DNA from: Marine group II euryarchaeote REDSEA-S43_B8
GTDB taxonomy: Archaea > Thermoplasmatota > Poseidoniia > Poseidoniales > Thalassarchaeaceae
Length of the DNA stretch: 31,416 nt
NCBI GenBank assembly: GCA_001629235.1
Contig: LUSA01000037.1
Span: 891-32,306 of the forward strand
Direction: 5' to 3'
A program made the translations under genes and the position numbers. Positions within the stretch are counted from its first letter, which is position 1. Each line of letters starts with the position of its first letter. Below are positions 5,890-30,078 of this stretch, piece after piece. Below the pieces are notes generated by a model. The model saw nothing but the letters and a program-made list of their open reading frames with translations. It did no database searches and was not told the origin of the DNA.

Positions 5890-6658
5890 ATGATGCCTGC
5901 GCCCCTGTGCCGTCGCATTGACATTGGATCTGAACCTGATCAGTAGTGTCAAAACCAGAACCCCCGTTATTGATTGTGATGCTCTCAATTCCTGAGCTTA
6001 CGGCGTATGTTCCAGAGAATCCGGATCCCCCTCCTCCAGTGGCAGATAGGTTGCCTGCTGAGTACCCCGTTCCGGAATCATCTATTGAGAGGGAAGTGAT
6101 GACATCGTCATTTGCGAAGGACTCGCAGAATACGAGAGTGTCAATCAACTCATCGGAGTCTAGGACCTGGTTGAAATTATTATCCAAACCGTGTTGAATG
6201 TAGTCTCCAGCAGAGCCAGAGCATCCTGAGAGGTTTGTGGAGGAGGATTTGACGAAGACCCTTCTCCAACCAGGAGAGTATGTGTAGTCAGAATTCAGAG
6301 TAACTTCGATTTCCCCGACATCGAATGTACTGACATTTGAACGAGTCCCGTCGTCCTTTAGGACCAAATCCCCATCATCATTCATCTCGACACCGAACAT
6401 ATTGCCAGAGCCGAAACTATCCTCGTCCCAAACGATACCAGAATCTGAGGATGATGGCAGCGGGGAGTTGGTCACATGTACCCATCCGTCCATGACAGTA
6501 GCATTCGTGGGTACGGTGAATCCGTCCACCACAGTAGGGGTTCCATCGCTGTTAATCATCGATGGACCGGACCAATTGGAAACCCCTGCATATGAGACAG
6601 GGGATAGTACCATTAGTAGTGTCATTGCTATTGCTAGTCTTGCGCGTTCGCTGGGCAT
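5890..6658 (-). CDS. N-terminal part of the same giant protein (signal peptide, Cys-bracketed DxNxN motif, GSGY repeats); frame break at 5889/5890
   Basis: ORF 5738..6658 starts with the signal-like MPSERARLAIAMTLLMVLSPVSYAG. It reads like the rest of the protein until GTGAQAS (5891), then turns Arg-rich and atypical. The adjacent frame resumes the repeat pattern with YQSTDVIAVG at 5889. Confidence 0.8.
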
Positions 6659-9372: not shown

Positions 9373-10167
9373 CTAGGATTTTTTGAGGAAAGCGACGAGG
9401 GTGCCTCCCGTCAAGTCAGTAAAACCGACCAAATGCTCTTCGTTGACCTCCCTGACTAGCTCAATCCACCTGTTAAATGATCGAACCTTCATCTGAGCGG
9501 GAGTGAGTTCAACTCCGGAAACAATTTCTCCCACGTCGCCCGTGGGAACGGTCGGCTCTAGGAGAAGAACTAGCCCTCCAGGAGAAACCAACTCAAAGAC
9601 AGATTTCGCTGCATCGGCACGGTCATCTTCTGGTAAATCGACGACTACCAAGTCTACAGGCATTGGTAAATCGGAATTCAATGCTGATTCGTCAATAGAG
9701 ACGTTTGAAGCCCTGGAAGAAATTGTCTCAGCGATCACTTCTTGCCAATTCATGGAAACAACTTGTGCCCAATCTCCTGCTTCGTACCTCCTGATTAGTC
9801 GCTCAATGATGACGCAGAACCTTTTTCCGGGCTCAATAATCCTAAGAGATTCTGGACGATTTGTTTGTATTTTCTCATTCTCCGAACTGATGGGCGACCA
9901 TAGATCGAAGAGCCATGCAGACAGATGGCCGATCCCCCCTCCTATGATCACGGCATTCTTCGGACTTATTCTCGAGCACACGTCTCTGATCCTAGCTCTG
10001 ATTGAGCGAGGGAGTAGGGGAATGTCCATGTGCAGCATTTGCTCTCCAATGCTTGATGCCACCTCTGGTTCAGACTGATCCCTCTCTTCGTCCTCTGAAA
10101 GAAGAATGGTCATAATATCAGAATCTGACCTCATTGGCAAACCTGAACTTCTTTCGCCTACGTCCAC
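9373..10167 (-). CDS. Class I SAM-dependent O-methyltransferase-like fold protein (degenerate; resembles the Methyltransf_3/TrmR family)
   Basis: Motif I-like PKNAVIIGGGIGH, post-I IIEP, VDLVVVD, VSPGGLVL and C-terminal GGTLVAFLKKS. The true start is uncertain and may be a later Met. Confidence 0.55.
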   Translation of the reverse strand: MDVGERSSGLPMRSDSDIMTILLSEDEERDQSEPEVASSIGEQMLHMDIPLLPRSIRARIRDVCSRISPKNAVIIGGGIGHLSAWLFDLWSPISSENEKIQTNRPESLRIIEPGKRFCVIIERLIRRYEAGDWAQVVSMNWQEVIAETISSRASNVSIDESALNSDLPMPVDLVVVDLPEDDRADAAKSVFELVSPGGLVLLLEPTVPTGDVGEIVSGVELTPAQMKVRSFNRWIELVREVNEEHLVGFTDLTGGTLVAFLKKS

Positions 10168-10242
10168 GTGTTACTCTGGCAACCACTACACTTCAACCAT
10201 GCTCTAGGATGGTTTGAAGACTATGCAACCTCACCATCTATC

Positions 10243-10842
10243 ATGGAGGCTGACGGAGGTACCTCGCTCGCAGAGTGTCCGCGATGTCAGGAAGTTGTAG
10301 ACCATACTATCATCAAAAGGAAAAAAAGGGGTTTGGGCGAAGATATATTGGTGAAGTGCGAAGGGTGCCAAGCTGTTCATACGATAATAATCAGACCTCC
10401 TAAGGCGACTTCTATCAACACCACATTATCCGACGGAAGGGAGAGTTTCAATGAAGAAATTGAGGTTGACAAGGATGAAGAGATTTCGGTCGGAGACATG
10501 TTCGAACACAATGAAATCACATGGAAGGTAACTAGGATTGATAATTCTCAATCTCGACCCCAAGAAAATCTACCAGCGACAGAGATATTCTCAATGTGGG
10601 CTACAAGATCTGATAGAACCATCGTTGGAGTGACAATGACCGATGGAGAAGTTAGCGAGTCTGGGAAAATAGAATGTGAACCTGATCGGGTTTTCTCATG
10701 TGGTTCGATAATCAAATTCGCAGATTCAAAGTGGAGAGTCAGGGCTATTCACACGGGAAAAGGAAGAACACTCAATGGAAGTAGGATGGCCTATGAGATA
10801 CGCAGGATATACCTCCATCCTCAAGATAATGTGAGAAGGTGA
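10243..10842 (+). CDS. Archaeal Zn-finger protein (HVO_0476/COG1326-like)
   Basis: N-terminal CPRC...CEGC..VH zinc ribbon followed by two repeated beta domains (TLSDGRES..EISVGDMF..WKVTRID; TMTDGEVS..SCGSII..WRVRAIH). ATG 10243 is preferred over the track start at 10168. Confidence 0.8.
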   Translation: MEADGGTSLAECPRCQEVVDHTIIKRKKRGLGEDILVKCEGCQAVHTIIIRPPKATSINTTLSDGRESFNEEIEVDKDEEISVGDMFEHNEITWKVTRIDNSQSRPQENLPATEIFSMWATRSDRTIVGVTMTDGEVSESGKIECEPDRVFSCGSIIKFADSKWRVRAIHTGKGRTLNGSRMAYEIRRIYLHPQDNVRR

Positions 10843-10864
10843 AATCCGGCCCCTCTAATGGGGA

Positions 10865-12754
10865 TTATCTTTCTTCATTTTCAAATTCAGTTAAGTTCGC
10901 GGATCTTAGTCGGATCAAGGAAACGGTAAGCATCCCTACTAGAACAACTACGATCAGGGATAAAACTGGTACTAGAGCAGAATTTACTGAATCGCCGGAG
11001 CCACTTGCAAATACGGGTTCAGAACCAAGAACGAAGACCTGGGCAACTAAGTTTGTAGATGCGTCATCACCAAGGATAGCCCGTACCATTACAGTCTGAT
11101 TTCCTTCGATTTGATTACCAGGAAGATATTGGAGCCGGTCGACCAACATAGTGTGGCTGATCTCAAAGTTTGTTTCGCCTTCTAGGAAATCTGGATGACT
11201 CATCCAATTGTCCCTCATGTCCCAAGTTCTCCATTGGACCTCCATCGGAGATCCTTGTACCGACACAGCGAATGACTCACCCGGATGTAGGTTTATCCTG
11301 TTCTCTTCTGAGAGGTCAGAGTCGACGCTTAGGTTGATATCGGTATTTAGCCCATACACATAGCTTGCAGCCTCTAAAAGAGCTGGGAGTCCCTCGACAT
11401 GCCCATGACCATACACATTGTTCTGCCTATTCTTAGGAATCAGATCCTCCGGGCACGGCTCATTTGCAAGCAAGTAGTGGCATTGCCTGTAGGTCGAGGT
11501 TTCCTGCATTATATTCCTGATATCAAATGGTGAAAGATCAGGGTTGGCCTGATACATTAGTGCCGCTAGTCCTGCTGCCCCCGGGGTAGCCATGCTGGTT
11601 CCTGAGTAAGCTACGTAGCCATCTCCCGAATTTGCTTCCGGAGCCATTACGCTGGACCCAACAAATGCAATATTAGGTTTCACCCTTCCCTCTTCGGTAG
11701 GGCCTTGACTGGAATAAACTGCTATCGAAGTGTCCTTGTCCAGAGCTCCTACGGTGATGACGTCCTCTGCAGAGCCGGGAGTACCGATCTGGGCGCTAAC
11801 CGCGCTGTTTCCAGCTGCAATGAATAGTGCTACTCCCGACCTAACCATCTCATTGGCCATTCTATTGACGCTTTCTTCCTCGCTGGATGTCCATTCTATC
11901 AGGCCAAATCCCCCAAGGCTCATACTAGCTGCTCTTATGTTGAAGTCATGTCTCTTGTCCACCGTCCATTCCATCCCCGCCATCACAGTGGCGAAAGATC
12001 CGGAGCCACCCTCATCCAAGACCTTGACCCCTACCAGTTGAGCCTGTGGAGCCACCCCGATGTTAACGAAATCTGGTGCACCGGTTCCTGCGGTAATTCC
12101 AGCACAGTGCGTACCATGGCCTTGGTCATCATATGCCTTAATCTCGGTTCCGTTCGTCTTATCGGGGTTGTTTACCGCATCATAGAATGCTATGACCTTC
12201 GAGTCATTGGTGGAATTGTCATCATCCAGATCGTCGAGTCCTGCATGATCTGAGTCTATTCCAGTATCGATGATTGAAACTACACTCCCCTCTCCAGTGT
12301 AACCGGTGTCCTCCCAAATCATTGGAATTCCATGTATGTCATTCACATCGCTCATCTGTGTAGTTAGAATCCCATCTAACTCGATAAGTACCACTCCGGG
12401 AAGACGAGAGGCTTTGATTAAATCTTCCACCCCTATCCTTCCTGCTATGCTATCTATCAGATGATAGCGGAACTGAGTCTGGAAATCTACCTCCCTCTCC
12501 AACATTTCCTGATCCTGAGATGTCGGAGTATGATCAAAGTCTACAATCACGCTGATGGTATTTTCTCCGTCCACCCAATCATACAATTCGCTGCCTATTG
12601 CCGACCAGATGGCATCATGTATCTTGTCACCATCCCTATCCATTGAAGTTGACTCCCACCATGGTGACTCTTGATACTCCCCTGTCCCAATACTAGACGA
12701 GGAAAGAGGGGCGAAGGCCAAGATAGCCAGAACTGCAATCGCCGCGGTCCTCAT
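10865..12754 (-). CDS. Secreted S8 subtilisin-like protease with propeptide and C-terminal membrane anchor
   Basis: Signal peptide MRTAAIAVLAILAFAPLSS (ATG 12754), propeptide-like region, IDTGID, GHGTHCAG, AGNS and SGTSMATP, then a C-terminal TM helix with a short tail. Confidence 0.95.
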   Translation of the reverse strand: MRTAAIAVLAILAFAPLSSSSIGTGEYQESPWWESTSMDRDGDKIHDAIWSAIGSELYDWVDGENTISVIVDFDHTPTSQDQEMLEREVDFQTQFRYHLIDSIAGRIGVEDLIKASRLPGVVLIELDGILTTQMSDVNDIHGIPMIWEDTGYTGEGSVVSIIDTGIDSDHAGLDDLDDDNSTNDSKVIAFYDAVNNPDKTNGTEIKAYDDQGHGTHCAGITAGTGAPDFVNIGVAPQAQLVGVKVLDEGGSGSFATVMAGMEWTVDKRHDFNIRAASMSLGGFGLIEWTSSEEESVNRMANEMVRSGVALFIAAGNSAVSAQIGTPGSAEDVITVGALDKDTSIAVYSSQGPTEEGRVKPNIAFVGSSVMAPEANSGDGYVAYSGTSMATPGAAGLAALMYQANPDLSPFDIRNIMQETSTYRQCHYLLANEPCPEDLIPKNRQNNVYGHGHVEGLPALLEAASYVYGLNTDINLSVDSDLSEENRINLHPGESFAVSVQGSPMEVQWRTWDMRDNWMSHPDFLEGETNFEISHTMLVDRLQYLPGNQIEGNQTVMVRAILGDDASTNLVAQVFVLGSEPVFASGSGDSVNSALVPVLSLIVVVLVGMLTVSLIRLRSANLTEFENEER

Positions 12755-18100: not shown

Positions 18101-18220
18101 GTATAAGCACAACGGATTGAGTTGGGAGTTCGGCTACTTCGATTAATCGTCAGACCGTAGGTCTGAATGTGCGTTTGGTGCGAATGTTCAAGTGGATTCG
18201 GAAACGCATATCTGATTCTG

Positions 18221-21200
18221 ATGACAGCGGCTAGCTTGCAGAGGCCTTTCCGGCGAGGAATTATATCGGGATTTGTAATTGCGATGATGCTATCCGTTCC
18301 GCTAGTGTCTATTGACAGGGGTATGGAGAAAAATTCCTTGAAAGATGGCATTGGTATCAAGATGAATACGCAGGAAGAGTCGGGTTCGACTTGGATAGAT
18401 GGAGGTCAGCCATGGCCTCAGTCGGGTAGAACAGCAACTAGGATAGCGGATGTCCCGAATCATTCTCCAGATGGCGGTGCCGGATATGGAGATCCTACTA
18501 ACTCCAGTTCACTTATGTCAGTGGTTAAGCCGGCGATTAACTGGGAATTTGGTTCATACTCAATTGGTACAGACTCACTGGCTACTCCGATTGCAGAAAT
18601 GAGTGGTTCAATAGAGATTGGCCCAGGTGCGGAGGAGAGGTGCGGAGGTAGATCGCTGTTCACCGTTTTGGTTCAAAGTGAAGACGTTGCTGGATCCGAA
18701 CACAGCATACTGAGACTGATAGAAGGAGAGGACGCCGAACTAGCTTGGCAGGTTGATCTTGGAGTAACTGAGAAAGTCAAGGCCTCCCCAGTCGTGGTAG
18801 ACATCGATGAGGACGGGAGTCCGGAGATAGTAGTAGCGTATGATGCAGGGGGGTCGTTGTATGTGGATGTCTGGTCCCCTAGAATGTTCTGCTCGGTAAC
18901 TGGATGGACTTACTCGGGCCACTCTGAAGACCTCCTTTGGACTTGGAGTGACGAGTCTTTGATGATTAGCAGTGAAGAAGGGCCGTACACAAGTGGAATT
19001 TTAGGGGGACATAAGCCAACGACCCAGCCTCTTCTTGCTGATCTAGACCTTGACGGTGATGCGGAATTGGTAATCGCTGCTCTGGACGAGATATCCGAGG
19101 AGCCGGTAGTACTCGCTCTACCGTTGCAAACCAGCGGATCACCAAACACGCTGTGGCAAGTTTCTCTAAGTAAAGGAAGCCATCCCTCTGACCCTGCATT
19201 TGCACAAGTTGATGATGATACCGGATATGTCCTACTGACTACCATCGAGGCAAATAATGGAGGGATGTGGGTTTGGAAGATTGACTCTGAAACCGGTAGC
19301 TCGATTTGGCAAGGAGGTTTGTCACTGAACAACCTGGATGGGGATACCAATTCACCTCATGTTAGATTGCCAGGGCCCATTATAGCCAATCTTGATTCTG
19401 ATTCCGATCCTGAGATTATAGTCACAATACCCAGTGATGCAGATGGTTCAACTGCTGTGGATGGGGCTGAATTCAGAGGAATAGAAATTTCAGATGGTTC
19501 GCAATTGTGGGAATTCGAGGCAACAAATGGATTTGCCGATGCCCCCCCTACGGCTATTGACACGGATGGAGATGGAATGCATGACAGAGTGTGTTGGAAC
19601 ACATGGTGGCAGACTACAACAGATAGGCAAGGTGCAGCAGGGTGTCACGACGTAGGAGGGACTGTACCAAACCAGGAGTGGGCTCAGGACCTGGAGCAAA
19701 GCAGCGGCAATCCCAATGATGAGATTGCAGTTGCGACCCCTATATGGATGAATATAGATTCAGAAGACGAGCCAGAGCTCCTAGTCTCTTATGGCAGATC
19801 TCTTTGGGCATTCGATGGATCAAGTGGTTCTCCAGCGGGGATTAATTCAGAGTGGTCAAATGATGTCGAGTTGACGCACAGGACTTGGTCCTCTCCTGCC
19901 ATCGCCGATGTAGATGGCGATGCCACGGCGGACATTGTTTTGGGCAGCATGGTAGTATCTATGGCAATGCCCGACGTCAGGCCAATAACCGATGGAAGGG
20001 GGATAGAGTTCAACCCCAGTGCTCCCGATCCTGGTGAAGAAGTAACTGTCACAGTTTACATCGAAAATGCTGGAACTGCAGATACTGAAGAGGTAGTGGA
20101 TGTAGCAATATTTGCCAACGGAGAGAAGATTGGTGGAGAGGGCATTGAAGTTCTAAATCCGGTAGATCCAACAGGTTCTGGTTCATTCGCATCCTTCAAC
20201 GTTGAGTGGAGCGGTGATCTTGGCGAGCATACCTTCGAATTGATTGTCGACCCATATCGAAACTTGAGTCAAACAAGGTTCGATAACGACAAACAGGTTA
20301 GGACTCTTTCAATAATCCCAACATACAACGCGACTTTCGAGATTCCCACGGAACCGATAAGAGTCGATCCGGGAGGGGATGGAGATGCGCGATTCGGAGT
20401 CAGATCGACGGGTAGGTTGGCAGGAACCTGGACGCTTAACGTCGACAGCACCTCTCTACCTGATGGATGGGCTTGGGAAGACGAAACTCCTGGTGGGATT
20501 AGTTCGATCGAAATTGGTGTTGGACAGGTCTGGACCCCCTCGCTGAGAATTATCGCCCCCTCGGAAGCACTGGGTTCAGATGCAGGTTTCCTAGCCCTGA
20601 CCCTCACACGTGATGGAGGCGATGAGGAGATTTATGCAAATCTCCCAGTAGAGGCTAACAGAACCAGAGGCCTATCGATAAGAGGTCCGGACGGGACTAC
20701 ACAGAGTACTGGTTTTGGGCTTGTATCAGAGGATGCCAGGGCTTGGTTACTGATAGAGAATGTTGGAAACGCTGAGGAGAGTCAGATCGCCATATCCTGG
20801 GACGGAACCGAATGGGGCTCAGATCTGAGAATTTTCGATTCTTCTGGATATGAGATAAGTGCACTGACTCTGGGCCCGGGGGAGGAGAGGGAAGTGACTG
20901 CTAGACTCCCTGTACCTTCCGGAACCGCGCCCGGAGAGTCCGTAACCACTCCTCTGAGCATGTGTGTTGGGACGGGGGATGAGCAAGAGTGCAGCCAAGT
21001 ACAGTTGGAATTTATCTCTTCCAGGTCAGTGATGGATCCTAGCCACATCAGATCGGTACCTGAACAAGGGCTAACCTGGGAGATCTCAGCCGACATCCCA
21101 GAGGGAGTTGGGGGCATGAATTGGTCATTATCTGATTCCGGGATGTCAATCCAAGGGTGGGATTGGAGTGGTTCCGGGCAAGTATCTGTCTCGGGTGACG

Positions 21201-23851
21201 TAATATCTATCATCGGAGATTCCGGGACCAGGGCAATTGGTTCGCTCACATTGGACCTTCCAGAGGATGCCAGGCCGTCTTTCCATCTCTTCGAAGACGA
21301 TGGCTCGGGAGTGTCTGAGTCTCCATTGTCTATTTCCATAGAGGTATTGCAAATCCATAGGGCGGGCATGGATGTCAACTCTCCTACAATGCAACCTTAC
21401 GTCGTTGACGTAGAAGAGTCCAACCTAGTGGTACTGAAGCTCGAGAATCCGGGTAACGGAGATGACTCATACATGCTTTCTCACGAAGTATTGCTCGACG
21501 AGAACATGACTTCTGACCCTGGCATTGTTGTATCATTTTCCAGCAACCCAGTTCATCTCGGAGCAGGGAGCCTTAGAACCGTCCCACTTAGCGTCTCGCT
21601 GCCAGAGAGCACTCCTGCTAGAGTGCCAATTGCGATATCTTTCACCATGACTTCACAGGGCAATGTGTCCGTCTACTCTCATGAGGTGATTGTTTTCGAA
21701 GTAAGGCAAGACCATAGGTGGGACTTCGACCTAATTCATGATGGAGAAGATATCAACGGAACGAAAATATTCCTAGCACCAGGAGAAGAGAGGGCTATAT
21801 CGATTAATGCAACAAACACGGGGAACCTAGTTGATGACATATCTCTAGATTTGGGCACTCAGATTTTCCCATTGGGTTCGGATTCGTCAGAAGGATGGAT
21901 TGCAAACGGGAGCTCAGTTGAGGGAGTGGAAGTTAACGAGTCTGTGTCTCTGGAAATTAATCTTGAGGCACCCGAGGATTCGTGGAATGGATCTATTATG
22001 AGAGTAGATGTTACTGGTATGGCCAGAGATGAGGCGATTATGGAATTCCACTTCATGATCGAGGTTACCAGAGTTCCGGGTTGGGGGGTGTCTTCTTCGA
22101 TATCTGATTTGGAGATAGATGCCAATGGATCGACCATCCAAATAGAGATTATGCAGATGGGGAACAATCCTAGTATACCATTCGTTTCAACTTACATCAC
22201 CGGACAAAAAGGATGGTTAATCGAAGATTTGCCGCAACTTCCCGAAGTGATTCCAGGGGATTCTACAACGCTGGAAATCAACGTAACGCCATCAGAAACT
22301 GCTAGTCCGGGAAGATCTGTAGAGTTACATGTGAGAGTTAGAGATGGCGATTCTGCTGGTTTGACAGAGATTACCATGCCACTTAGAGTATCTGCTGTCC
22401 AGAACTTCTCTATCGAATCTCATGGTTCTTGGGCGGTTTCCAGTCATGGTGGTCAACCTCCCGCAATGGTATCAAACACAGGAAATTCCCCTACGACCAT
22501 CGACTTCCACATAGAAGGAGTTCCAGATGGATGGGGGGCTAGTGGGAGTATGCAAATTGTACTCGCACTTGGAGAACAAAGAGGGATTCCAATTGATCTG
22601 GTTCCAGAAGAAGGTTGGACTGGCCCTTCCGAGACAGTAAGGATAGTAGCAGAAGATGCGAGTGGTAATCAGAGAGAAATCGAACTTGAAGTGCACTATT
22701 CCGAGTTCTCCTGGGCTAGCTCGCCCTACATCTTTGCTCAGAGTGGGGATGACGCCACCATAAACATCCATGGAACTGACGAAAGTACCGAAGTTCTTGA
22801 CAGAGGCAGTAGACTAGAGTGGAGCGAGATGGGTTGGTTGCTGCCAATTGATGATTCGACCAATGGAACCCTGTCCATAGAAGGCGAGGAACTGGATTAT
22901 TTCCTATCCTCGGAGTATTCCGAATCCAGAGTGGTCTTATGTTCCATAACAGGGGATTTCGACGACATGGGGGCTACGTGCTCCGTAGGGAACGGAACCA
23001 TGGACTTTGATTTCCAAATACTACTGATTTCGGATGAGGGTTCTGTTCTAGACTACTTCTACGGTAGTCTCGAGTCAAATGAGTCTGCTCAGCAGATAAA
23101 CCTGAGTGGATCCGAATGGAAACCCCTACCAGGAGAAAGGAGCGTTGTAATCAGGGTTCTAGACGAGAAAGGATTGTTGATTGGAGACTTTGAGAGAGAG
23201 TTTGATGTTAGGAGGAGCGACTGGAACGTGGGAATCGGAGAAGTTGAATTAGTCGGAGAGGGTACAGGGCAGCAGATCAGCGTCCCTACAAAGAGACTCA
23301 ACGAAAATCTACTGTCCGATGCAGATTGTATTATCTCCCTTAGTGCCGAAGGAAGTTCTGGAAGCCACTATTCTGAGCATATTGTCGATATGACACAGGC
23401 CTTCGTACCCGCCCCCAAGTTCGATCGGCCAGATGTGGAAGACTCGACAGAACTTGTGATAACCATTAGTTGCTCTTTCCCATGGGATATCGATTCAGAT
23501 CCAAGTGATAATCAGAGGACAATAGTACTCAGTGGAGGTTCTGCCCTAGAGGATAGAGTTGACGAACTGGGGACGGGCCTTCTTGCTGCTATTCTTGTAG
23601 TCGGCACTTACCTTGGTTTGTCTTGGATTATGAGCAACCGTAGGGAGTCTGAGAGGATGATGCAAATGGCCCAGGCTGCAATAGACGAGAAGATTGCCGA
23701 GAAGCAATCCGCGCCCATGATTGAGGAAAATGAGCCCGAAGGAGTTGAAGAGCCCGAATCAAGTGATGATGACGAGGTAGAAGTCGTTCAGAATAAAACA
23801 GAAGAGGGTGACGAGTACGACGAGCGGCTCAGAAGGCTTCTTGACAGATAG
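18221..23851 (+). CDS. Giant membrane-anchored surface protein: FG-GAP/VCBS-like beta-propeller, CARDB domain, tandem NEW3/COG1470-like Ig domains, C-terminal TM and acidic tail
   Basis: N-terminal signal. Ca-binding loops DIDEDGSPEIVV, DLDLDGDAELVI, NLDSDSDPEIIV, DTDGDGMHD, NIDSEDEPELLV and DVDGDATADIV. CARDB-like NPSAPDPGEEVTVTVYIENAG..FELIVDP..NDK. Repeated ENxGN/NTGN motifs, and TM LLAAILVVGTYLGLSWIM. ATG 18221 is preferred over 18167. Confidence 0.9.
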   Translation: MTAASLQRPFRRGIISGFVIAMMLSVPLVSIDRGMEKNSLKDGIGIKMNTQEESGSTWIDGGQPWPQSGRTATRIADVPNHSPDGGAGYGDPTNSSSLMSVVKPAINWEFGSYSIGTDSLATPIAEMSGSIEIGPGAEERCGGRSLFTVLVQSEDVAGSEHSILRLIEGEDAELAWQVDLGVTEKVKASPVVVDIDEDGSPEIVVAYDAGGSLYVDVWSPRMFCSVTGWTYSGHSEDLLWTWSDESLMISSEEGPYTSGILGGHKPTTQPLLADLDLDGDAELVIAALDEISEEPVVLALPLQTSGSPNTLWQVSLSKGSHPSDPAFAQVDDDTGYVLLTTIEANNGGMWVWKIDSETGSSIWQGGLSLNNLDGDTNSPHVRLPGPIIANLDSDSDPEIIVTIPSDADGSTAVDGAEFRGIEISDGSQLWEFEATNGFADAPPTAIDTDGDGMHDRVCWNTWWQTTTDRQGAAGCHDVGGTVPNQEWAQDLEQSSGNPNDEIAVATPIWMNIDSEDEPELLVSYGRSLWAFDGSSGSPAGINSEWSNDVELTHRTWSSPAIADVDGDATADIVLGSMVVSMAMPDVRPITDGRGIEFNPSAPDPGEEVTVTVYIENAGTADTEEVVDVAIFANGEKIGGEGIEVLNPVDPTGSGSFASFNVEWSGDLGEHTFELIVDPYRNLSQTRFDNDKQVRTLSIIPTYNATFEIPTEPIRVDPGGDGDARFGVRSTGRLAGTWTLNVDSTSLPDGWAWEDETPGGISSIEIGVGQVWTPSLRIIAPSEALGSDAGFLALTLTRDGGDEEIYANLPVEANRTRGLSIRGPDGTTQSTGFGLVSEDARAWLLIENVGNAEESQIAISWDGTEWGSDLRIFDSSGYEISALTLGPGEEREVTARLPVPSGTAPGESVTTPLSMCVGTGDEQECSQVQLEFISSRSVMDPSHIRSVPEQGLTWEISADIPEGVGGMNWSLSDSGMSIQGWDWSGSGQVSVSGDVISIIGDSGTRAIGSLTLDLPEDARPSFHLFEDDGSGVSESPLSISIEVLQIHRAGMDVNSPTMQPYVVDVEESNLVVLKLENPGNGDDSYMLSHEVLLDENMTSDPGIVVSFSSNPVHLGAGSLRTVPLSVSLPESTPARVPIAISFTMTSQGNVSVYSHEVIVFEVRQDHRWDFDLIHDGEDINGTKIFLAPGEERAISINATNTGNLVDDISLDLGTQIFPLGSDSSEGWIANGSSVEGVEVNESVSLEINLEAPEDSWNGSIMRVDVTGMARDEAIMEFHFMIEVTRVPGWGVSSSISDLEIDANGSTIQIEIMQMGNNPSIPFVSTYITGQKGWLIEDLPQLPEVIPGDSTTLEINVTPSETASPGRSVELHVRVRDGDSAGLTEITMPLRVSAVQNFSIESHGSWAVSSHGGQPPAMVSNTGNSPTTIDFHIEGVPDGWGASGSMQIVLALGEQRGIPIDLVPEEGWTGPSETVRIVAEDASGNQREIELEVHYSEFSWASSPYIFAQSGDDATINIHGTDESTEVLDRGSRLEWSEMGWLLPIDDSTNGTLSIEGEELDYFLSSEYSESRVVLCSITGDFDDMGATCSVGNGTMDFDFQILLISDEGSVLDYFYGSLESNESAQQINLSGSEWKPLPGERSVVIRVLDEKGLLIGDFEREFDVRRSDWNVGIGEVELVGEGTGQQISVPTKRLNENLLSDADCIISLSAEGSSGSHYSEHIVDMTQAFVPAPKFDRPDVEDSTELVITISCSFPWDIDSDPSDNQRTIVLSGGSALEDRVDELGTGLLAAILVVGTYLGLSWIMSNRRESERMMQMAQAAIDEKIAEKQSAPMIEENEPEGVEEPESSDDDEVEVVQNKTEEGDEYDERLRRLLDR

Positions 23852-23857
23852 TCAACA

Positions 23858-24490
23858 GTGTGTGCCATGGGGAGTTACATTCCGCCTTCTTCCTTCCATA
23901 CTTTCGACCCGATAAGGAACAGTCCTGATTCGATAGTAAACGGAATCATCTCTTCCATGTCTGGGAATCATGGAGAGTTACTCCTTTCAGCGGCAGGAAT
24001 AGAAGAGGTAGCAGGCCTAAAGGAGGGGGAAGACTCCCCTCTTGACAAGGCAACACTGCTATTCATCTCTGTTCTCGACTGGCAAGATGACTGGAGCGTT
24101 CCCCGATCCCTTGATGGGGGTCACTCAAGAGAGAGGCTAGGGAGGTTCCCTAGTGATGATGGCAATGCAATAGAGTATCTCCTCCGCTTCACGAAAGAGG
24201 GAGAGGGGTCTGATCTTCACCGTCTATTGGAGAAGCTATGCAGGGGCCTGAATGAAGATTCATTCGGACATTCTGGATTCAATGAGGGCTCCGCAGGTAT
24301 CGAGATGCTAGGTTGGCTAGATGGAGAAGATATCTCCAAAATTAGGAGGGAGATTGAGAAGGGAGCTTGGTCAGTCAAGTCCGATGAGCCCCTCGATGGA
24401 GGAGTGCAGGATGCATTCAGGCATCTTCTTGTATTTCTTAGAGCGGCTGTCAAAAGGAAATGCGGGATTCTGATGAGAAGGCATTCCTAG
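23858..24490 (+). CDS. Hypothetical protein
   Basis: A 210-aa ORF with normal composition that fills the gap between flanking genes. ATG 23867 is an alternative start. Confidence 0.7.
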   Translation: MCAMGSYIPPSSFHTFDPIRNSPDSIVNGIISSMSGNHGELLLSAAGIEEVAGLKEGEDSPLDKATLLFISVLDWQDDWSVPRSLDGGHSRERLGRFPSDDGNAIEYLLRFTKEGEGSDLHRLLEKLCRGLNEDSFGHSGFNEGSAGIEMLGWLDGEDISKIRREIEKGAWSVKSDEPLDGGVQDAFRHLLVFLRAAVKRKCGILMRRHS

Positions 24491-25170
24491 GTCCTGATGC
24501 GCATCTCTCTGAGCTCTTGATAGATCATTGTTGATTCTTCCAGGACTGAATGCAGGTGGTCGCTCAACTCCCCTTCCTTTGAAGACGGAGGGGAAAATCC
24601 CGAGGATTTCCATACAGAATCATACCAGTATTTTCCCCATAAGCCGTCACAACTCCTTGGTCCTGGCTCCCAAGATAGCATTCTCCGGGAGAATGGAATA
24701 CCGATAGATTCACACAGTACTGAGAGGATTAATTCGGGATTTTCCAAGACGTCTTCCGAATCGATGACAGGGGGTATTTTCCCGGAACTCTTGATTACAT
24801 GCCTGAAGATTGTTAGTTGCTGTGGGAGGCCTGTCGATAGCAGGTCAATGGAGTCGGTAATCTTGGAAAGGGATAGGAGAACGTCCCGAGGGTTCCTGAT
24901 CAAGAAGCAGTTCTTGAAATCATCAATCCAAGAAATGTCAGAGTCATCGGGAATGGGGCCAGTGAGTGTTGTGATTACCTTTCCCAAATCGGTCTCATTT
25001 TTCTCAATTACCTCCTCCGCGCCGGGATGGGGAGTCCTGCTGTTGAGGAGGAAAGATGCATAGAGAGGTTCATCGGTTGCATGGCAGTCAAATCTATTTT
25101 CGAATGAGTACATCAGTGCAGTTGAGATATTGCGGGGTCCAGACCACATCGCGATCCTAGTTCTATCCAA
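24487..25170 (-). CDS. Sulfotransferase-like protein of the type found with aminotransferase-IV-like genes (Sulfotransfer_5-like); internal segment apparently missing near 24950
   Basis: RIAMWSGPRNISTALMYSF (5'-PSB-like loop), DEPLY, FLIRNPRDVLLS (3'-PB-like), PPVIDSEDVL.NP and LSW..GP..DGLWGKYWY. TTG 25170 follows an SD-like GAGGTGA. Confidence 0.85.
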   Translation of the reverse strand: MDRTRIAMWSGPRNISTALMYSFENRFDCHATDEPLYASFLLNSRTPHPGAEEVIEKNETDLGKVITTLTGPIPDDSDISWIDDFKNCFLIRNPRDVLLSLSKITDSIDLLSTGLPQQLTIFRHVIKSSGKIPPVIDSEDVLENPELILSVLCESIGIPFSRRMLSWEPGPRSCDGLWGKYWYDSVWKSSGFSPPSSKEGELSDHLHSVLEESTMIYQELREMRIRT

Positions 25171-25175
25171 GCGAG

Positions 25176-26072
25176 TCACCTCATTACGAGTTCTTGATAC
25201 AGTTGTTGGATCCTTTCGCATATCCTCCCTCTTGATCCTTGTCCAATCACAGTACCATCAAAAGAAATTACGGGAGTCAAACCTGCGAATGTCCCGGTCA
25301 CGAAAGCCTCGTCTGCCAAATGTACGTCCTCAAATGTGAAATTTCCCAGAGTGTATGGGATTCCGTGAGAATCGCAAATTTCCAGGACCTTGCGCCTAGT
25401 AATACCATCTAAGCAGTATTCCCCCGTTGAAGTCCAAACTACGCCATCCCTTACCATGAAGAAGTGGGTCGAGTTACAGGTTGATACAAACCCATGTGGA
25501 TCCAGCATCAAACCCTCCTCCCCCCCTTTGTTATCTGCCTCGATGCAAGCCGCAATGCAGTTGTGCTTGGAGAGGCTGTTAATCCTAGGATTCTGAACCT
25601 CTGGGCCGCTTCTCCTGATATCTACGGAGACAAGCCTAATGCCATCGATTGACCTTTTTTCATTGGCCTTCTTGAATTCTGGGATGATGACGATTGTAGG
25701 TTTTGAAGAAATTACCCAAGGAGCCTGGTATGGAGTTGGCTTGAGGCCTCTTGAGACAATTAGCCTGAGATGGACGTTATCATGCATTTCGTTAGCAGAA
25801 ATCACCCTGTTTATCTCTGACCTAATCTCGTCCCTAGACCTCCCGGGGTCAAGGGAAATCTCCGATGCCCCGTGGAAAAGTCTGTCCAAATGTTCTTCGA
25901 TGAACACTAGTTTTCCATCATGGAGCCTAAATGATTCCCAGACGCCATCTCCCAAAAGGAAGCCAGAGTCGAAAACCGAAACCTTCGCTTCTTTCCTTGG
26001 GAAGAGTTCTCCATTTACAGATATCAGTACATCCTCGTTTCTAGGGTCATCCTCGTACTCATGTGTCCCCAT
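25176..26072 (-). CDS. Aminotransferase class IV (fold-type IV, BCAT/D-AAT-like) protein with atypical active site
   Basis: Motifs SVFDSGFLLGDGVWE, HLDRL, RLIVSRG, EGLMLD.HG, CLDGITR and DEAFVTGT. ATG 26072 overlaps the purC stop (TGATG). Confidence 0.88.
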   Translation of the reverse strand: MGTHEYEDDPRNEDVLISVNGELFPRKEAKVSVFDSGFLLGDGVWESFRLHDGKLVFIEEHLDRLFHGASEISLDPGRSRDEIRSEINRVISANEMHDNVHLRLIVSRGLKPTPYQAPWVISSKPTIVIIPEFKKANEKRSIDGIRLVSVDIRRSGPEVQNPRINSLSKHNCIAACIEADNKGGEEGLMLDPHGFVSTCNSTHFFMVRDGVVWTSTGEYCLDGITRRKVLEICDSHGIPYTLGNFTFEDVHLADEAFVTGTFAGLTPVISFDGTVIGQGSRGRICERIQQLYQELVMR

Positions 26073-26983
26073 CAAAGAGCCTCTCCAGTAAGGCGCTGGA
26101 ACATACTAGCGTATAGTTCAGCCGTACTGGCAATAATGCTATCTGGTAGAGGGGGGATGGGTGGTTCTGGTGACCCAGATTGTCTTGCTTCGTATAGTTC
26201 CGAATGGTGGCCTGACTCGATGTAGTGTTTTCTTACTGACTCCTTCGAGAGCTGTACTATCTCTCCGTCCTCATAGGCATCGGCATCCCACCATCGATCC
26301 TCATCGAGAGTTCCGAAGGAGTCTATCAGAACAGGCTCCCGGCCTTCTCCCAGTGCGAATTCCTTCTTCCCGTCAACATGGATTAGTCCTCTCTTAGATG
26401 TCTCTCGATCGATTACCGAATCCACCTCCAGAACTATCGCTAGAATTGCGTCAAGCTCTGCAGGATCCAAATTTGAAATCTCCAATGCCTCATCTCTATC
26501 CAGATTCCTGTCGAACTTTTCGAACTTAGTGGAGACTTCCAGGAACGGCTCTGGAAGCCTGACTCCCTCATCAAGCACCTCCCCTGCTTCGAATCCGAAG
26601 TCCTCAGGCTTTACCTCTCCTCTCTGATATCTCCTCCATGCGGTACCTGCCAGATAATGCCTACAGATTACTTCTAGTGGGACGAAGAAGTTCTCTGCAT
26701 CTCTGGGAATGGCGCCAGGTTCTCTGATCACGTCAAAACGTCTCGCTAGAACTCTGTCTGGGGCATTCATCTCTATGACATGAGTCTTGCAAATTCCTTC
26801 ATCCTCAATCAGTCCGAACCAATGACAAGATGCTCTGTTCAATGACTCTCCCTTCCTCGGAATCAAACTAGGAATCACTTGGTCGAAGACTGATATCTGA
26901 TCCGTGTATCTGAACTCGATGATATCAGGATCATCCGTGCTCCAAACCTGTTTAACCTTACCACTATACAATAATTCTGTCAT
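26072..26983 (-). CDS. purC: Phosphoribosylaminoimidazole-succinocarboxamide (SAICAR) synthase
   Basis: Motifs LYSGKVKQVW, TDQISVFD, IPRKGESLN, PLEVICRHYLAGT, STKFEKFD, GLIHVDGKKEF, DSFGTLDEDRWW and LSKESVR. Confidence 0.96.
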   Translation of the reverse strand: MTELLYSGKVKQVWSTDDPDIIEFRYTDQISVFDQVIPSLIPRKGESLNRASCHWFGLIEDEGICKTHVIEMNAPDRVLARRFDVIREPGAIPRDAENFFVPLEVICRHYLAGTAWRRYQRGEVKPEDFGFEAGEVLDEGVRLPEPFLEVSTKFEKFDRNLDRDEALEISNLDPAELDAILAIVLEVDSVIDRETSKRGLIHVDGKKEFALGEGREPVLIDSFGTLDEDRWWDADAYEDGEIVQLSKESVRKHYIESGHHSELYEARQSGSPEPPIPPLPDSIIASTAELYASMFQRLTGEAL

Positions 26984-27095: not shown

Positions 27096-29371
27096 GTGGC
27101 ATCGGAAGCGTCTCTCTGGAATGGCCCCAAGGGCAAGCGTAGTGCAGATTTACTGATCGCATTCGTACTAGTTGCCCTTCTTTTCTCATTTGGAGAAGTT
27201 TCTGCTCAAGAGGTTAGGAGTGGGTGGGAAGTAGTCGATAGCGGGACTGAGGAGAATCTGTATACTGCAGAGTACCTAGAGGGAGAGATATGGGCATTCG
27301 GATCTGGAGGAACCATGATCAGGAGTATCGATGAAGGAAGAACTTGGTCTGAATCTGGAATATCAGTAAGCCAAGATCTCACTTCTTCAGATTCGAGTTA
27401 CGAATCTATAATCGTGGCAGGAAATAGAGGTACTGTCCTATTGATGAATGAAGGCGTCTGGATGGATGTAAGTTCTGATCAATTTGGAGATATCAAGGAC
27501 GTTGCCCTTACTGGGAATGATAGTTTTGTTGTCATTGAGCAAGATGAAGTCTGGACTTGCACAGTGACAGTGGAATGGGATACTGAATGCGATTCGGCAA
27601 ATGAAGGAGGGGGGATAAATTATCTCAGTGTATCATTCTTGGATTCAGAAAACGGAATTATTTCTGGAGAGAACGGGGCAATAATTGCATCCTCTGATGG
27701 AGGCAGTAGCTGGGAGTATAGAGATGCGCCTAGCGAGGTTTCAACGAAGGCAATTATCGATGTTGAATACTACAGTACGATTAGGGCGTACGCGATCTCA
27801 GAAGAAGGGCACATTCTGAAGTCATCGAGAGAAGGAAATGTTCCCGTGGGATTCGTCTGGAGCATAGTGGATATCGAAAGAGAATACCCCCCAGGAGGTG
27901 GTGATGAGTTCGAATCTGGAGGTTCGAATCTGGACTTCGAAGTATCTGGGATGAAGGTTCTTGGACAATTCAAGTTCATGATTTCTGGTCCGGGAGGTTA
28001 CCTCTCCCTCAGTCTGGACGGGGGGAATATAGTCTCTCAGCAAATGATTCCAGTCTCGAACGAGACTGTGTTCAATGGATTTGCTATGCTGGACGGTTTC
28101 AGAGGGGTCGCCGTAGGGGATGGAGGAGTTTTACTCAGGACAGAGAACGCGGGATCGGAGGAGTTCGTCGGATTCGAGGTGATTGACTTCAACGATTTCG
28201 GACAATTCATCGACTACTCTAAGGAGAGATTGATGGATGGGCTTGTAGCGACTGCAAAGATCGTGATTTTTGGAATTCTAATGGGTTTCTCTCTAGGAAT
28301 AGTCCTTTCAATGCTAAAGACATCTCCAACTACACTCAAGAATGTGGCTCAGACCAATAGATTCCAGATTCTATTGATGTTCGTAGTTACGCCATTATGG
28401 TTATCTTTCCAGATTCCTATCTCAGCGATTAACTCAACTGGATTGGGTAGAAAATTGAATCTGAGCAATCCTTTCAGCAGCGTATTAGGTTACTGTAGAG
28501 GGAGATCCTTACACATTGCAGCAAGTGAGCCACTGAACATTATCGCTATTCGTACAATAGGATTAATTCTGATATTTTTCGGGATTTATCGGATTCTCAG
28601 TAATCTCGATGATATCAGAGACCTAAACCTAGATGGTTGGGAACACATCTACTCGCCTATCGGGGCTCCTGGGGCGATGTTCTGGATTCTACTGGGTCTT
28701 GGAATAGCGATATTGGGAGGCATATTTTTGTCATGCAATGGGGACTTCTCCATACGAGAAATTGAGTTCAGCAAGGTGAGTTTCTCTCTCGATCCATGGG
28801 GAATCAGGCCATTGAACACGATTGCAACGGTATACACGGACATTTTCAGAAACACGCCATTGCTCGTTCAGTTCATGTTCATACACTTCGGATTCGAGCT
28901 TGGAAGAAGATTGCAGGACCCTGGGCTAATGTTGTTCGACTTCGATTACCTAGTGGGCAACTCAAACTTCATCACCGATATTTTCGTAGTTTACGAGACG
29001 AATCCCGAATCGCTAGCCTACGGTAGGCCGATTGGGGGGATTCTTGAGGATAGGGCATACATTGTATTGGGCTAAATTACATGCAATCGATGAGGCTGGT
29101 GGTAATGCCCCAGGCTGTCAGAATCTGCATACCCCCACTAGGTAACGAGATGGTCAACCTAGTACTGAACTCTTCACTAGCTATGATTATCGGTTATGCT
29201 GAAATCACAAGGCAGGGGAAGTTAATCGTCGCGACTACTTTCCAGGTTTTCTGGACTTGGGGAATGGTACTGATCTCATACTTCCTGATTACATGGACCC
29301 TAGCACTCTTCCTCAGGTACCTTGAGGAAAGGACTAGGATTCCTGGGTTAGGAATATCAGGAGGTGCTTGA
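27096..29371 (+). CDS. Polar amino acid ABC transporter permease (HisM/GlnP family) fused to an N-terminal YCF48/BNR beta-propeller; frame break and missing segment at about 29063
   Basis: Signal peptide, Asp-box motifs SIDEGRTW and SSDGGSSW, and permease motifs GLVATAKIVIFG, YTDIFRNTPLLVQ. After the break the protein continues (S)IGLNYMQSMRLVVMPQAVRICIPPLGNEMVNLVLNSSLAMIIGYAEITRQG. Confidence 0.85.
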
Positions 29372-30078
29372 TTGTCAGAAATTATCCTCAGCGTTGAAGA
29401 GATGGAGAAGACGTATGTTGGAGGGGTCCATGCGGTCAGAGGAGTCTCGTTCGAAGTGAAGGAGGGGGAGTCATTGGCTATTATTGGCTCATCTGGGAGT
29501 GGCAAATCTACCGTACTTAGGTGTATCAACCGCCTGATTGAGCCCACTCAAGGTATCGTGAGGTTGAAGGGAGAAAGGATCAACACGCCTGCTGCTGATG
29601 TTAATGATGTTCGCTCTAGGATAGGGATGGTCTTCCAGTCTTTCGAGTTATTCTCTCACTTGAGGGTGATTGACAATGTTTCCCTTGGGCTAATTCATGT
29701 CAGGGGAATGAGTAAGGAGGATGCTTTTGACCATGCTCGCAGTGTTCTTGAGAGGGTAGACATGCTCGATAGGGTTGATGCCTATCCCGGAAACCTATCT
29801 GGTGGTCAGAAGCAGAGGGTGGCTATCGCAAGGGCACTTGCGATGAAGCCTGAGGTCATGCTGTTTGACGAGCCCACTAGTGCCCTAGACCCAGAACTAA
29901 TCGGCTCCGTTCTTGAGCCATGGTAGTGGTCACCCATGAGATAGGATTCGCCAGAGACGTTGCTGATCGTGTGATATACATGGATCGGGGCCTTATTGCA
30001 GAGGAGGGGGAATCATCCATAATCGATAATCCGAAAACGGACAGGATGAGAGATTTCCTCTCTAGCATCAATGACTGA
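29372..30078 (+). CDS. Polar amino acid ABC transporter ATP-binding protein (GlnQ-like); frame break at about 29918
   Basis: Walker A GSSGSGKST, Q-loop GMVFQSFELF, signature LSGGQKQRVAIARALAM, Walker B LFDEPTSALDPE. The C-terminus MVVVTHEIGFARDVADRVIYMD..FLSSIND resumes in another frame at 29920 and stops at 30078. Confidence 0.92.

Follow-up and report, generated by a model that had tools for sequence, protein, structure and literature searches.

A gene on the minus strand of a 31,416-nucleotide stretch of DNA from the Marine group II euryarchaeote REDSEA-S43_B8 (contig LUSA01000037.1, positions 891 to 32,306), here called the window, encodes an aminotransferase-like protein in which the catalytic lysine is replaced by asparagine. 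Judged from its sequence, the protein is an archaeal member (Marine Group II, Thalassarchaeaceae) of a lysine-less branch of fold-type IV aminotransferase-like proteins, which also holds the Variovorax protein of PDB entry 7z79 and the C-terminal halves of the plant branched-chain amino acid aminotransferase (BCAT)-like proteins 1 and 2. Since asparagine is found at the lysine site and threonine at the site of the glutamate that contacts the cofactor ring, the usual transamination is excluded; the protein is predicted to form no canonical internal aldimine and hence cannot perform the usual lysine-dependent ping-pong transamination. The gene overlaps a downstream gene for a sulfotransferase-like protein; most likely, its product acts as a ligand-binding or catalytic partner to a sulfotransferase that uses 3'-phosphoadenosine 5'-phosphosulfate (PAPS).

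Replaced and retained residues of the active site

The protein contained an Aminotran_4 domain (Pfam, E-value 3.5e-39), and its best match among solved structures in a HMMER search was 7z79 (E-value 4e-82), while the solved archaeal BCATs 5mqz, 5cm0, and 5e25 matched at E-values of about 1e-49 and the D-amino acid aminotransferase (D-AAT) structure 1daa at 1e-27. The best NCBIfam score was 223 bits, to be compared with a cut-off of 363, and the protein fell under every NCBIfam cut-off for BCAT, D-AAT, and PabC, with scores of 179.5 for ilvE_I (cut-off 245.55) and 152.5 for D_amino_aminoT (cut-off 277.45). An AlphaFold2 model was obtained with a mean predicted local distance difference test score (pLDDT) of 90.3. 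In a fold search, this model matched BCATs and D-AATs with template modeling (TM) scores of 0.83 to 0.91, which shows that the two-domain fold of the Aminotran_4 family is present, but was closer to 7z79 and the related entry 9j32 (TM-scores 0.93 to 0.96, root-mean-square deviation 1.2 to 1.4 Å).

Residue numbers are counted from the ATG codon at position 26072, which is the likely start, as all close homologs are 298 amino acids long and begin at the same ATG. In HMMER alignments to the 3 archaeal BCATs, the catalytic Lys was matched by Asn165, the Tyr located 4 residues past it by Lys169, and the Glu of the E-G-S-G-x-N loop by Thr198. The Schiff-base Lys and the ring-nitrogen Glu are thus missing, and together with the Tyr that binds O3' of pyridoxal 5'-phosphate (PLP), all 3 of these BCAT residues have been replaced. 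Their counterparts in Escherichia coli BCAT are K159 (Schiff base), Y164 (hydrogen bond to PLP O3'), and E193 (pyridine N1). The phosphate-binding set has been kept (R64, T225/R226, and T259-G-T261), and 2 further arginines, R49 and R103, lie at the positions of the acid-binding R40 and R97 of the E. coli enzyme.

A further indication of the role of the asparagine came from the structure database. The sequences of 7z79 and 9j32 differ at a single residue, the one aligned to Asn165, which is Asn in the former and Lys in the latter. The PDB titles read "aminotransferase-like protein from Variovorax paradoxus" for 7z79 and "mutant N174K" for 9j32, which implies that the depositors treat the Asn as a missing catalytic Lys.

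An earlier note on this DNA, made from the letters and open reading frames (ORFs) alone, had assigned Asn165 to the catalytic Lys position, pointed to a Lys 4 residues further on and to Thr198 at the ring-nitrogen Glu, and described the phosphate-cup motifs HLDRL, GITR, and TGT as intact. These assignments were borne out by the 3 BCAT alignments, which for Asn165 agreed with the 7z79/9j32 pair, and all of the motifs and coordinates given were found to be correct. Nor did Lys169 align to the canonical Lys position, or an acidic residue to the ring nitrogen, in the comparison with 5mqz, 5cm0, and 5e25. As explanations, the note offered a migrated catalytic lysine, a non-covalent or different use of the cofactor, or new chemistry; it mentioned neither the structural description of the family in 7z79 nor a connection between the unusual active site and the sulfotransferase-like neighbor.

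Distribution and conservation of the lysine-less proteins

To place the protein among its relatives, we used 150 representatives with at most 50% mutual identity, collected in a search of the full library, and sorted them by the residues at the Lys site, 4 residues further on (here +4), and at the Glu site. The canonical group (K / Y or F / E) comprised 46 representatives, all of which have kept the Glu. A second group of 18 had His at the Lys site (H / L, M, or Q / E). The group of the window protein, with Asn at the Lys site and Lys at +4 (N / K / T), contained 36 representatives, and another 9 had Asn and Arg (N / R / S), as in the Variovorax protein 7z79. The 5-residue pattern NKTCN was observed in 32 representatives and NRSCN in 9.

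In a tree inferred without the diagnostic columns, all lysine-less forms clustered in a single clade with 98% support in the Shimodaira-Hasegawa-like approximate likelihood ratio test (SH-aLRT), within which the Asn-type proteins formed a nested clade with 99% support and the His-type proteins appeared to be basal; the tree was based on a quick search without bootstrap and was rooted at the midpoint, so the direction of change is not proven. Two representatives nested in the Asn-type clade, P0140 and P0173, have a canonical Lys together with Thr or Gly in the place of the Glu and Arg at +4, and may be either reversions or intermediates.

The lysine-less groups also shared residues that were mostly missing in the canonical enzymes, namely N12, H101 (in place of Tyr), E132, and K134. 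Asn12 was found in the N/K/T, N/R/S, and His-type groups and is not the rule in the Lys-bearing relatives. Compared with the canonical transaminases (5mqz, 5cm0, 5e25, E. coli IlvE, and Bacillus D-AAT), the window protein thus has the fold, the phosphate-binding Arg, I-T-R, and T-G-T in common, whereas the equivalent of Tyr95 is His and N12, E132, and K134 are additional.

The closest solved relative, 7z79, showed 46% identity to the window protein in the structural alignment. Both are of fold-type IV architecture, carry Asn in place of the Lys and Ser or Thr in place of the Glu, and have the C-N-S-T loop, an intact phosphate cup, and the N-terminal D-x-R-N motif. However, 7z79 has Arg in place of Lys169 and Ser in place of Thr198, and its close relatives are not encoded next to a sulfotransferase gene. 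The same 2 substitutions distinguished the Variovorax type as a whole, in which residue 154, an Arg in the window group, was Cys, Thr, or Val and the Arg was often lost. The genes neighboring those of the Variovorax-type relatives coded for an enolase-superfamily protein and an AsnC regulator, or for an amino-acid binding protein, and not for a sulfotransferase. The only solved structure, 7z79, is thus that of a sister subfamily, possibly with a different role.

The top structural matches in Swiss-Prot were the Arabidopsis BCAT-like proteins 2 and 1 (Q9ASR4 and Q8W0Z7), with a TM-score of 0.93 and 37% to 38% identity. The alignment ran through the C-terminal halves of these proteins, covering residues 251 to 539 of BCAT-like 2 and 252 to 542 of BCAT-like 1. 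The named homologs of the window protein were from Candidatus Thalassarchaeaceae and Poseidoniales, that is, Marine Group II archaea, in addition to which there were hundreds of near-identical metagenomic copies; in the databases, the homologs carry the name "branched-chain amino acid aminotransferase."

To assess which residues are constrained, we aligned 44 orthologs with 52% to 77% identity to the window protein, all of them linked to a sulfotransferase gene, from Poseidoniales, Marine Group III archaea, Gammaproteobacteria, Alphaproteobacteria, Balneolaceae, Chloroflexota, and Actinomycetota. Culturable carriers of the gene include Alteromonas oceani S35, Glaciecola sp. MH2013, Erythrobacter sp. 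NAP1, Sphingopyxis granuli, and Rhodanobacter lindaniclasticus. The residues N165, S168, K169, C199, N200, and T202 were invariant in all 44 sequences, as were R64, T225, R226, T259, R49, and R103, which are common to the Lys-bearing relatives too, while T198 was conserved in at least 90%. Pairwise dN (nonsynonymous substitutions per site) ranged from 0.14 to 0.45, and as dS (the synonymous counterpart) was saturated in every pair, it can only be stated that dN is far below dS. We also examined contigs from 4 public marine sequencing runs in 4 different studies (3 of DNA and 1 of RNA), which contained no variant at the diagnostic codons; 9 of the 11 in-gene differences listed were synonymous. 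Most of the gene was covered by contigs of a single metatranscriptome library, which gives a hint of gene expression. Taken together, these patterns indicate that the gene is under purifying selection and is not decaying. Furthermore, the invariance in the 44 orthologs and the unchanged codons in the 4 runs imply that the replacements are fixed family traits rather than the result of chance or error.

The genome from which the window derives encodes a fragment of a canonical type-II-like BCAT elsewhere (contig C86, positions 1528 to 2004, minus strand), which keeps both the Lys (G-G-V-K-A-I-G-N-Y) and the Glu (I-E-E-V-G-A-A-N-F-F). The lysine-less gene is therefore not the IlvE of the cell, and the view in the earlier note that it is unlikely to be a standard IlvE is well supported by this fragment, by the replaced Lys, Glu, and Tyr, and by the separate lysine-less clade. 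It was also noted that the BCAT fragment runs off the end of its contig and that 2 TGA codons were counted within the match, which may reflect a truncation or a frameshift in the assembly.

The sulfotransferase-like partner and the supply of PAPS

The gene immediately downstream codes for a protein with a Sulfotransfer_5 domain (PF19798). To examine how general this arrangement is, we compared 80 loci from named genomes, 79 of which had room to tell, and including the window a total of 81 regions were inspected. In about 73 of the 79 loci, a PF19798 gene followed directly in the same orientation, often with an overlap of 4 nucleotides. The exceptions were 2 loci in Alteromonas, where it was located upstream on the other strand, 1 locus where it was located downstream on the other strand, and 4 loci that had none within 6 kb. 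No third conserved neighbor was found across the 81 regions. The next most common neighbors, which were genes for lipoamide dehydrogenase, E2 acyltransferase, and D-Ala-D-Ala carboxypeptidase, reflected lineage-specific synteny, and a purC-like gene such as that upstream in the window was present in only 4 of the 81 regions, the linkage being confined to Poseidoniales.

The same 2 domains were also found in a single chain. Fusions of Sulfotransfer_5 and Aminotran_4 were identified in 9 of the 10 long representatives tested, of Asn-type and His-type alike, and at least one fused representative came from the transcriptome of a marine eukaryote. The fused representatives, such as the 559-residue P0153, belong to the same lysine-less clade as the window protein (98% SH-aLRT support) and are of eukaryotic type; they combine in one chain what the window encodes as 2 overlapping genes, and differ in that most are of the His type, with His at the Lys site, the Glu kept, and Leu or Met at +4. 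In the fused representatives examined, the sulfotransferase domain is N-terminal, whereas in prokaryotes the aminotransferase-like gene precedes that of its partner, which implies that the fusions are not simple read-through products of the operon. Taken together, the gene pairing and the fusions indicate that the 2 proteins share a function.

The His-type sequences are exemplified by K-I-H-H-N-N-L-L... F-V-A-E-T-N-A-T-N (P0151 to P0158, P0170, P0179, and others). The group includes long representatives fused to the sulfotransferase domain, and at least one prokaryotic member (P0151) without a sulfotransferase neighbor.

A model of an intact relative of the partner was obtained with a pLDDT of 95.7, and a fold search with this model returned PAPS sulfotransferases, namely the tyrosylprotein sulfotransferases TPST1 and TPST2, CurM, olefin-synthase (OLS) domains, Stf0, retinol dehydratase, and LGS1, with E-values of 2e-7 to 7e-4, TM-scores of 0.4 to 0.6, and identities of 12% to 16%. 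It was the fold search that placed the partner, as a sequence search of PDB gave only marginal matches to CurM and OLS (E-value 0.26) and a look-up in the Protein Atlas returned its own family alone. The nearest solved folds were those of the TPSTs, the sulfotransferase (ST) domains of CurM (4gbm) and OLS (4gox), retinol dehydratase (1fml), and LGS1 (22ga), which unlike the partner in the window have no aminotransferase-like companion. In the CurM ST, OLS ST, retinol dehydratase, and LGS1, sulfation of a hydroxyl turns it into a leaving group.

The partner family contained 2 invariant motifs, an S-G-P-R-x-x-S-T loop and R-x-P-x5-S, as well as an invariant Lys and His within the sequence Q-K-H-M-x-H-H. 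In form and spacing, the first 2 correspond to the 5'-phosphosulfate and 3'-phosphate motifs of cytosolic sulfotransferases. In a single run, a complex prediction for the window aminotransferase-like protein and the intact partner gave a score of 0.00, which counts neither for nor against binding.

The partner assembled in the window is 244 amino acids long, as compared to 260 in its closest relatives, and the missing 16 residues carry the Q-K-H-M-x-H-H motif. The underlying difference is a segment of 48 nucleotides that the window lacks at positions 24944 to 24955. The closest relatives have it, as do contigs of all 4 public runs, where it is flanked by 2 copies of a 12-nucleotide direct repeat (24944 to 24955 in the window). 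The PAPS-type motifs and Q-K-H-M-x-H-H were complete in the relatives and in all 4 runs, and the latter motif was absent from the window assembly. The deletion probably reflects a collapse in the assembly or a rare variant. Decay of the module as its cause was considered and rejected on the grounds that the intact form was found in all of the runs.

We also examined the distribution of the module and of PAPS synthesis among 151 genomes of Poseidoniales. The aminotransferase-like gene was present in 29 of these, in 5 of 22 genera, including all 9 genomes of the genus of the window, and the module is thus a patchy accessory in this order. A gene for adenosine 5'-phosphosulfate (APS) kinase (E-value at most 1e-20) was counted by hand in 26 of the 29 genomes with the module, as compared to 22 of the 122 genomes without it; the genomes are related, and the co-occurrence is supportive rather than a statistical proof. 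The genome of the window itself contained an APS kinase gene (133 bits; contig C56, region 9484 to 11795). ATP sulfurylase (PF01747) was not found in this genome, which is 80% complete. An ORF of 425 codons located about 1.7 kb from the APS kinase gene resembled the APS kinase model only weakly, with a P-loop-type match.

Table 1. Positions in the window of the aminotransferase-like gene, its neighbors, and the codons and motifs discussed in the text
Feature	Positions	Strand	Remarks
Lys-less fold-type IV aminotransferase-like gene	25176..26072	minus	298 aa from ATG 26072; TTG 26075 also possible (ORF then 25176..26075)
Asn165 codon, Schiff-base Lys position	25578..25580	minus	Aligned to the BCAT catalytic Lys and to N174/K174 of 7z79/9j32
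Lys169 codon, position of the BCAT Tyr binding PLP O3'	25566..25568	minus	Alignment to K-S-L-N-Y of archaeal BCATs
T198-C-N-S-T202 loop, replacing the E-G-S-G-x loop	25467..25481	minus	BCAT alignment; Thr198 at PLP ring-nitrogen Glu
Phosphate-cup and Arg residues, canonical positions	25290..25892	minus	R64, GITR, TGT, plus R49 and R103
N-terminal D9-x-R11-N12 motif	26037..26048	minus	Invariant in the 44-ortholog alignment; Asn specific to the Lys-less clade
Asn165-containing motif	25536-25592	minus
VSTCNSTHFF motif	25458-25487	minus	Thr198 codon 25479-25481
HLDRL motif	25878-25892	minus	Contains R64
GITR motif	25395-25406	minus
TGT motif	25290-25298	minus
Downstream partner, Sulfotransfer_5 (PF19798)	24487..25221	minus	Pfam E-value 1.3e-33; 46-nt overlap with the aminotransferase-like gene if ATG 25221
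Upstream purC (SAICAR synthetase)	26072..26983	minus	Pfam and NCBIfam; its stop and the start ATG of the aminotransferase-like gene have one base in common

Elsewhere in the window, 2 very long ORFs flank the region, one at positions 1 to 5988 (minus strand; at least 1996 amino acids, running off the window edge) and one at 18167 to 23851 (plus strand; 1894 amino acids). A gene at 27096 to 29075 (plus strand) codes for a protein of 659 amino acids whose N-terminal part is BNR/YCF48-like and whose C-terminal half is hydrophobic. This protein may combine a sensor or binding domain and a permease in an unusual fusion, and its gene is followed by one for an ABC-transporter ATPase at 29372 to 29926 (plus strand).

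Possible functions of the pair

We consider it probable that the aminotransferase-like protein and the sulfotransferase act in a single pathway, in which the former would hold an anionic ligand with a phosphate group without a covalent bond. The ligand would be PLP, pyridoxamine 5'-phosphate (PMP), or another phospho-compound. The 2 proteins, encoded by overlapping genes, would operate as a single functional unit, with PAPS as the sulfuryl donor for the PAPS-type sulfotransferase-like protein. This reading builds on the sequences, predicted structures, and gene context of the N/K/T subclade. Non-covalent use of a cofactor is seen in ColD and E1, which are PMP-dependent sugar dehydratases of fold-type I with His in place of the Schiff-base Lys. 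The likeness to these enzymes is a functional analogy and not one of homology; the His-type relatives share the Lys-to-His change and keep the Glu, whereas the window protein has Asn rather than His and has lost the Glu as well.

Several observations weigh against this interpretation. The pairing and the fusions do not show a physical complex or a shared substrate, and the sole solved relative, 7z79, comes from the sister subclade, so its ligand binding may not transfer. Moreover, the association with APS kinase was seen among related genomes and is not phylogenetically independent, and the partner assembled in the window is without its most conserved motif, although the public runs show the intact form.

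The most viable alternative, which was raised in the earlier note and which we regard as unlikely, is that the lysine has been relocated, such that Lys169 forms the Schiff base or acts as a general base in a true PLP enzyme. The chemistry of this enzyme would have shifted from transamination to, for example, an elimination or replacement reaction, with a sulfated product of the partner as the substrate. Consistent with this, Lys169 was invariant in all 44 sulfotransferase-linked orthologs and the phosphate cup is intact. Furthermore, the 3 diagnostic positions covary as K/Y-or-F/E, H/L-M-Q/E, and N/K/T, with a basic residue at +4 where the first position is Asn. Among the structural neighbors of the partner, the CurM ST, retinol dehydratase, and LGS1 use sulfate as a leaving group, and Ser or Thr is found at the ring nitrogen in fold-type II enzymes that catalyze elimination and replacement, in resemblance to Thr198. 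However, the sister subclade has an Arg at the position of Lys169, which is incapable of forming a Schiff base, and the His-type proteins fused to the same sulfotransferase domain carry Leu or Met there. These 2 points argue against a Schiff base at +4 as a general feature of the clade. In addition, the authors of 7z79 reportedly described PLP as held by its phosphate only, in a 2022 paper in Crystals.

A more elaborate version, which we think is quite unlikely, is that the pair constitutes a two-step enzyme in which sulfuryl transfer from PAPS would be coupled to cofactor chemistry, with Lys169 replacing the lost Lys and Thr198 keeping the pyridine nitrogen unprotonated. The reaction could then be a sulfate-activated beta or gamma elimination or replacement on a hydroxy-amino acid, or alternatively the C-sulfonation of an enamine to yield a sulfonate such as cysteate or sulfopyruvate. 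The latter would correspond to a route from PAPS and 2-aminoacrylate to precursors of taurine that is described in old biochemical reports and to which no gene is known to have been assigned. If this version were true, the route would be common to marine archaea, bacteria, algae, and plants.

It is very unlikely that the protein is a non-catalytic pseudoenzyme, that is, a cofactor-free scaffold or regulatory subunit of the sulfotransferase with a pocket kept for structure only. All 3 BCAT residues that contact the PLP ring have been replaced, and inactive paralogs that activate a catalytic partner are known in other families (for example, PMC3663545). Against this, few columns are as well conserved across phyla as those of the phosphate cup and the new polar N/K/T-C-N-S-T set, which would be unusual for an empty site, and the Variovorax-type subclade persists without a sulfotransferase neighbor.

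Finally, an ordinary BCAT or D-AAT with odd residues caused by misalignment, sequencing error, or gene decay has next to no chance of being correct: the database names say BCAT and the NCBIfam models for BCAT and D-AAT do match, but far under every cut-off, while the 3 BCAT alignments and the 7z79/9j32 pair put Asn at the Lys site, in a gene under purifying selection with residues that were invariant in the orthologs and unchanged in the 4 public runs. At the level of the sequence, a standard transaminase is effectively refuted.

Proteins of this kind are already known, as a structure was released in 2022 and the plant paralogs have been named for years. In the literature, only domain listings were found; the searches brought up neither a paper about 7z79 or 9j32 nor any functional work on PF19798 or the fused plant proteins. 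The pair of Sulfotransfer_5 and Aminotran_4 domains is listed, without a function, in a plant paper from 2026 (PMC13725701). The contribution of the window itself is modest, consisting of the archaeal member and data on its context. The present comparison adds that the new residues are fixed throughout the family, that a sulfotransferase-linked (N/K/T) and an unlinked (N/R/S) group are separate, and that the module co-occurs with APS kinase.

Lysine-less proteins of this kind are annotated throughout as "branched-chain amino acid aminotransferase," a name that is almost certainly wrong for the clade and that leads metabolic reconstructions of abundant marine archaea and bacteria astray. The family spans from Marine Group II archaea to Arabidopsis and is tied to a sulfotransferase-like partner and, in Poseidoniales, also to PAPS synthesis. 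The fixed N/K/T-C-N-S-T pocket and the obligate partner provide concrete handles for finding the reaction, which may turn out to involve a new type of sulfur or vitamin B6 chemistry.

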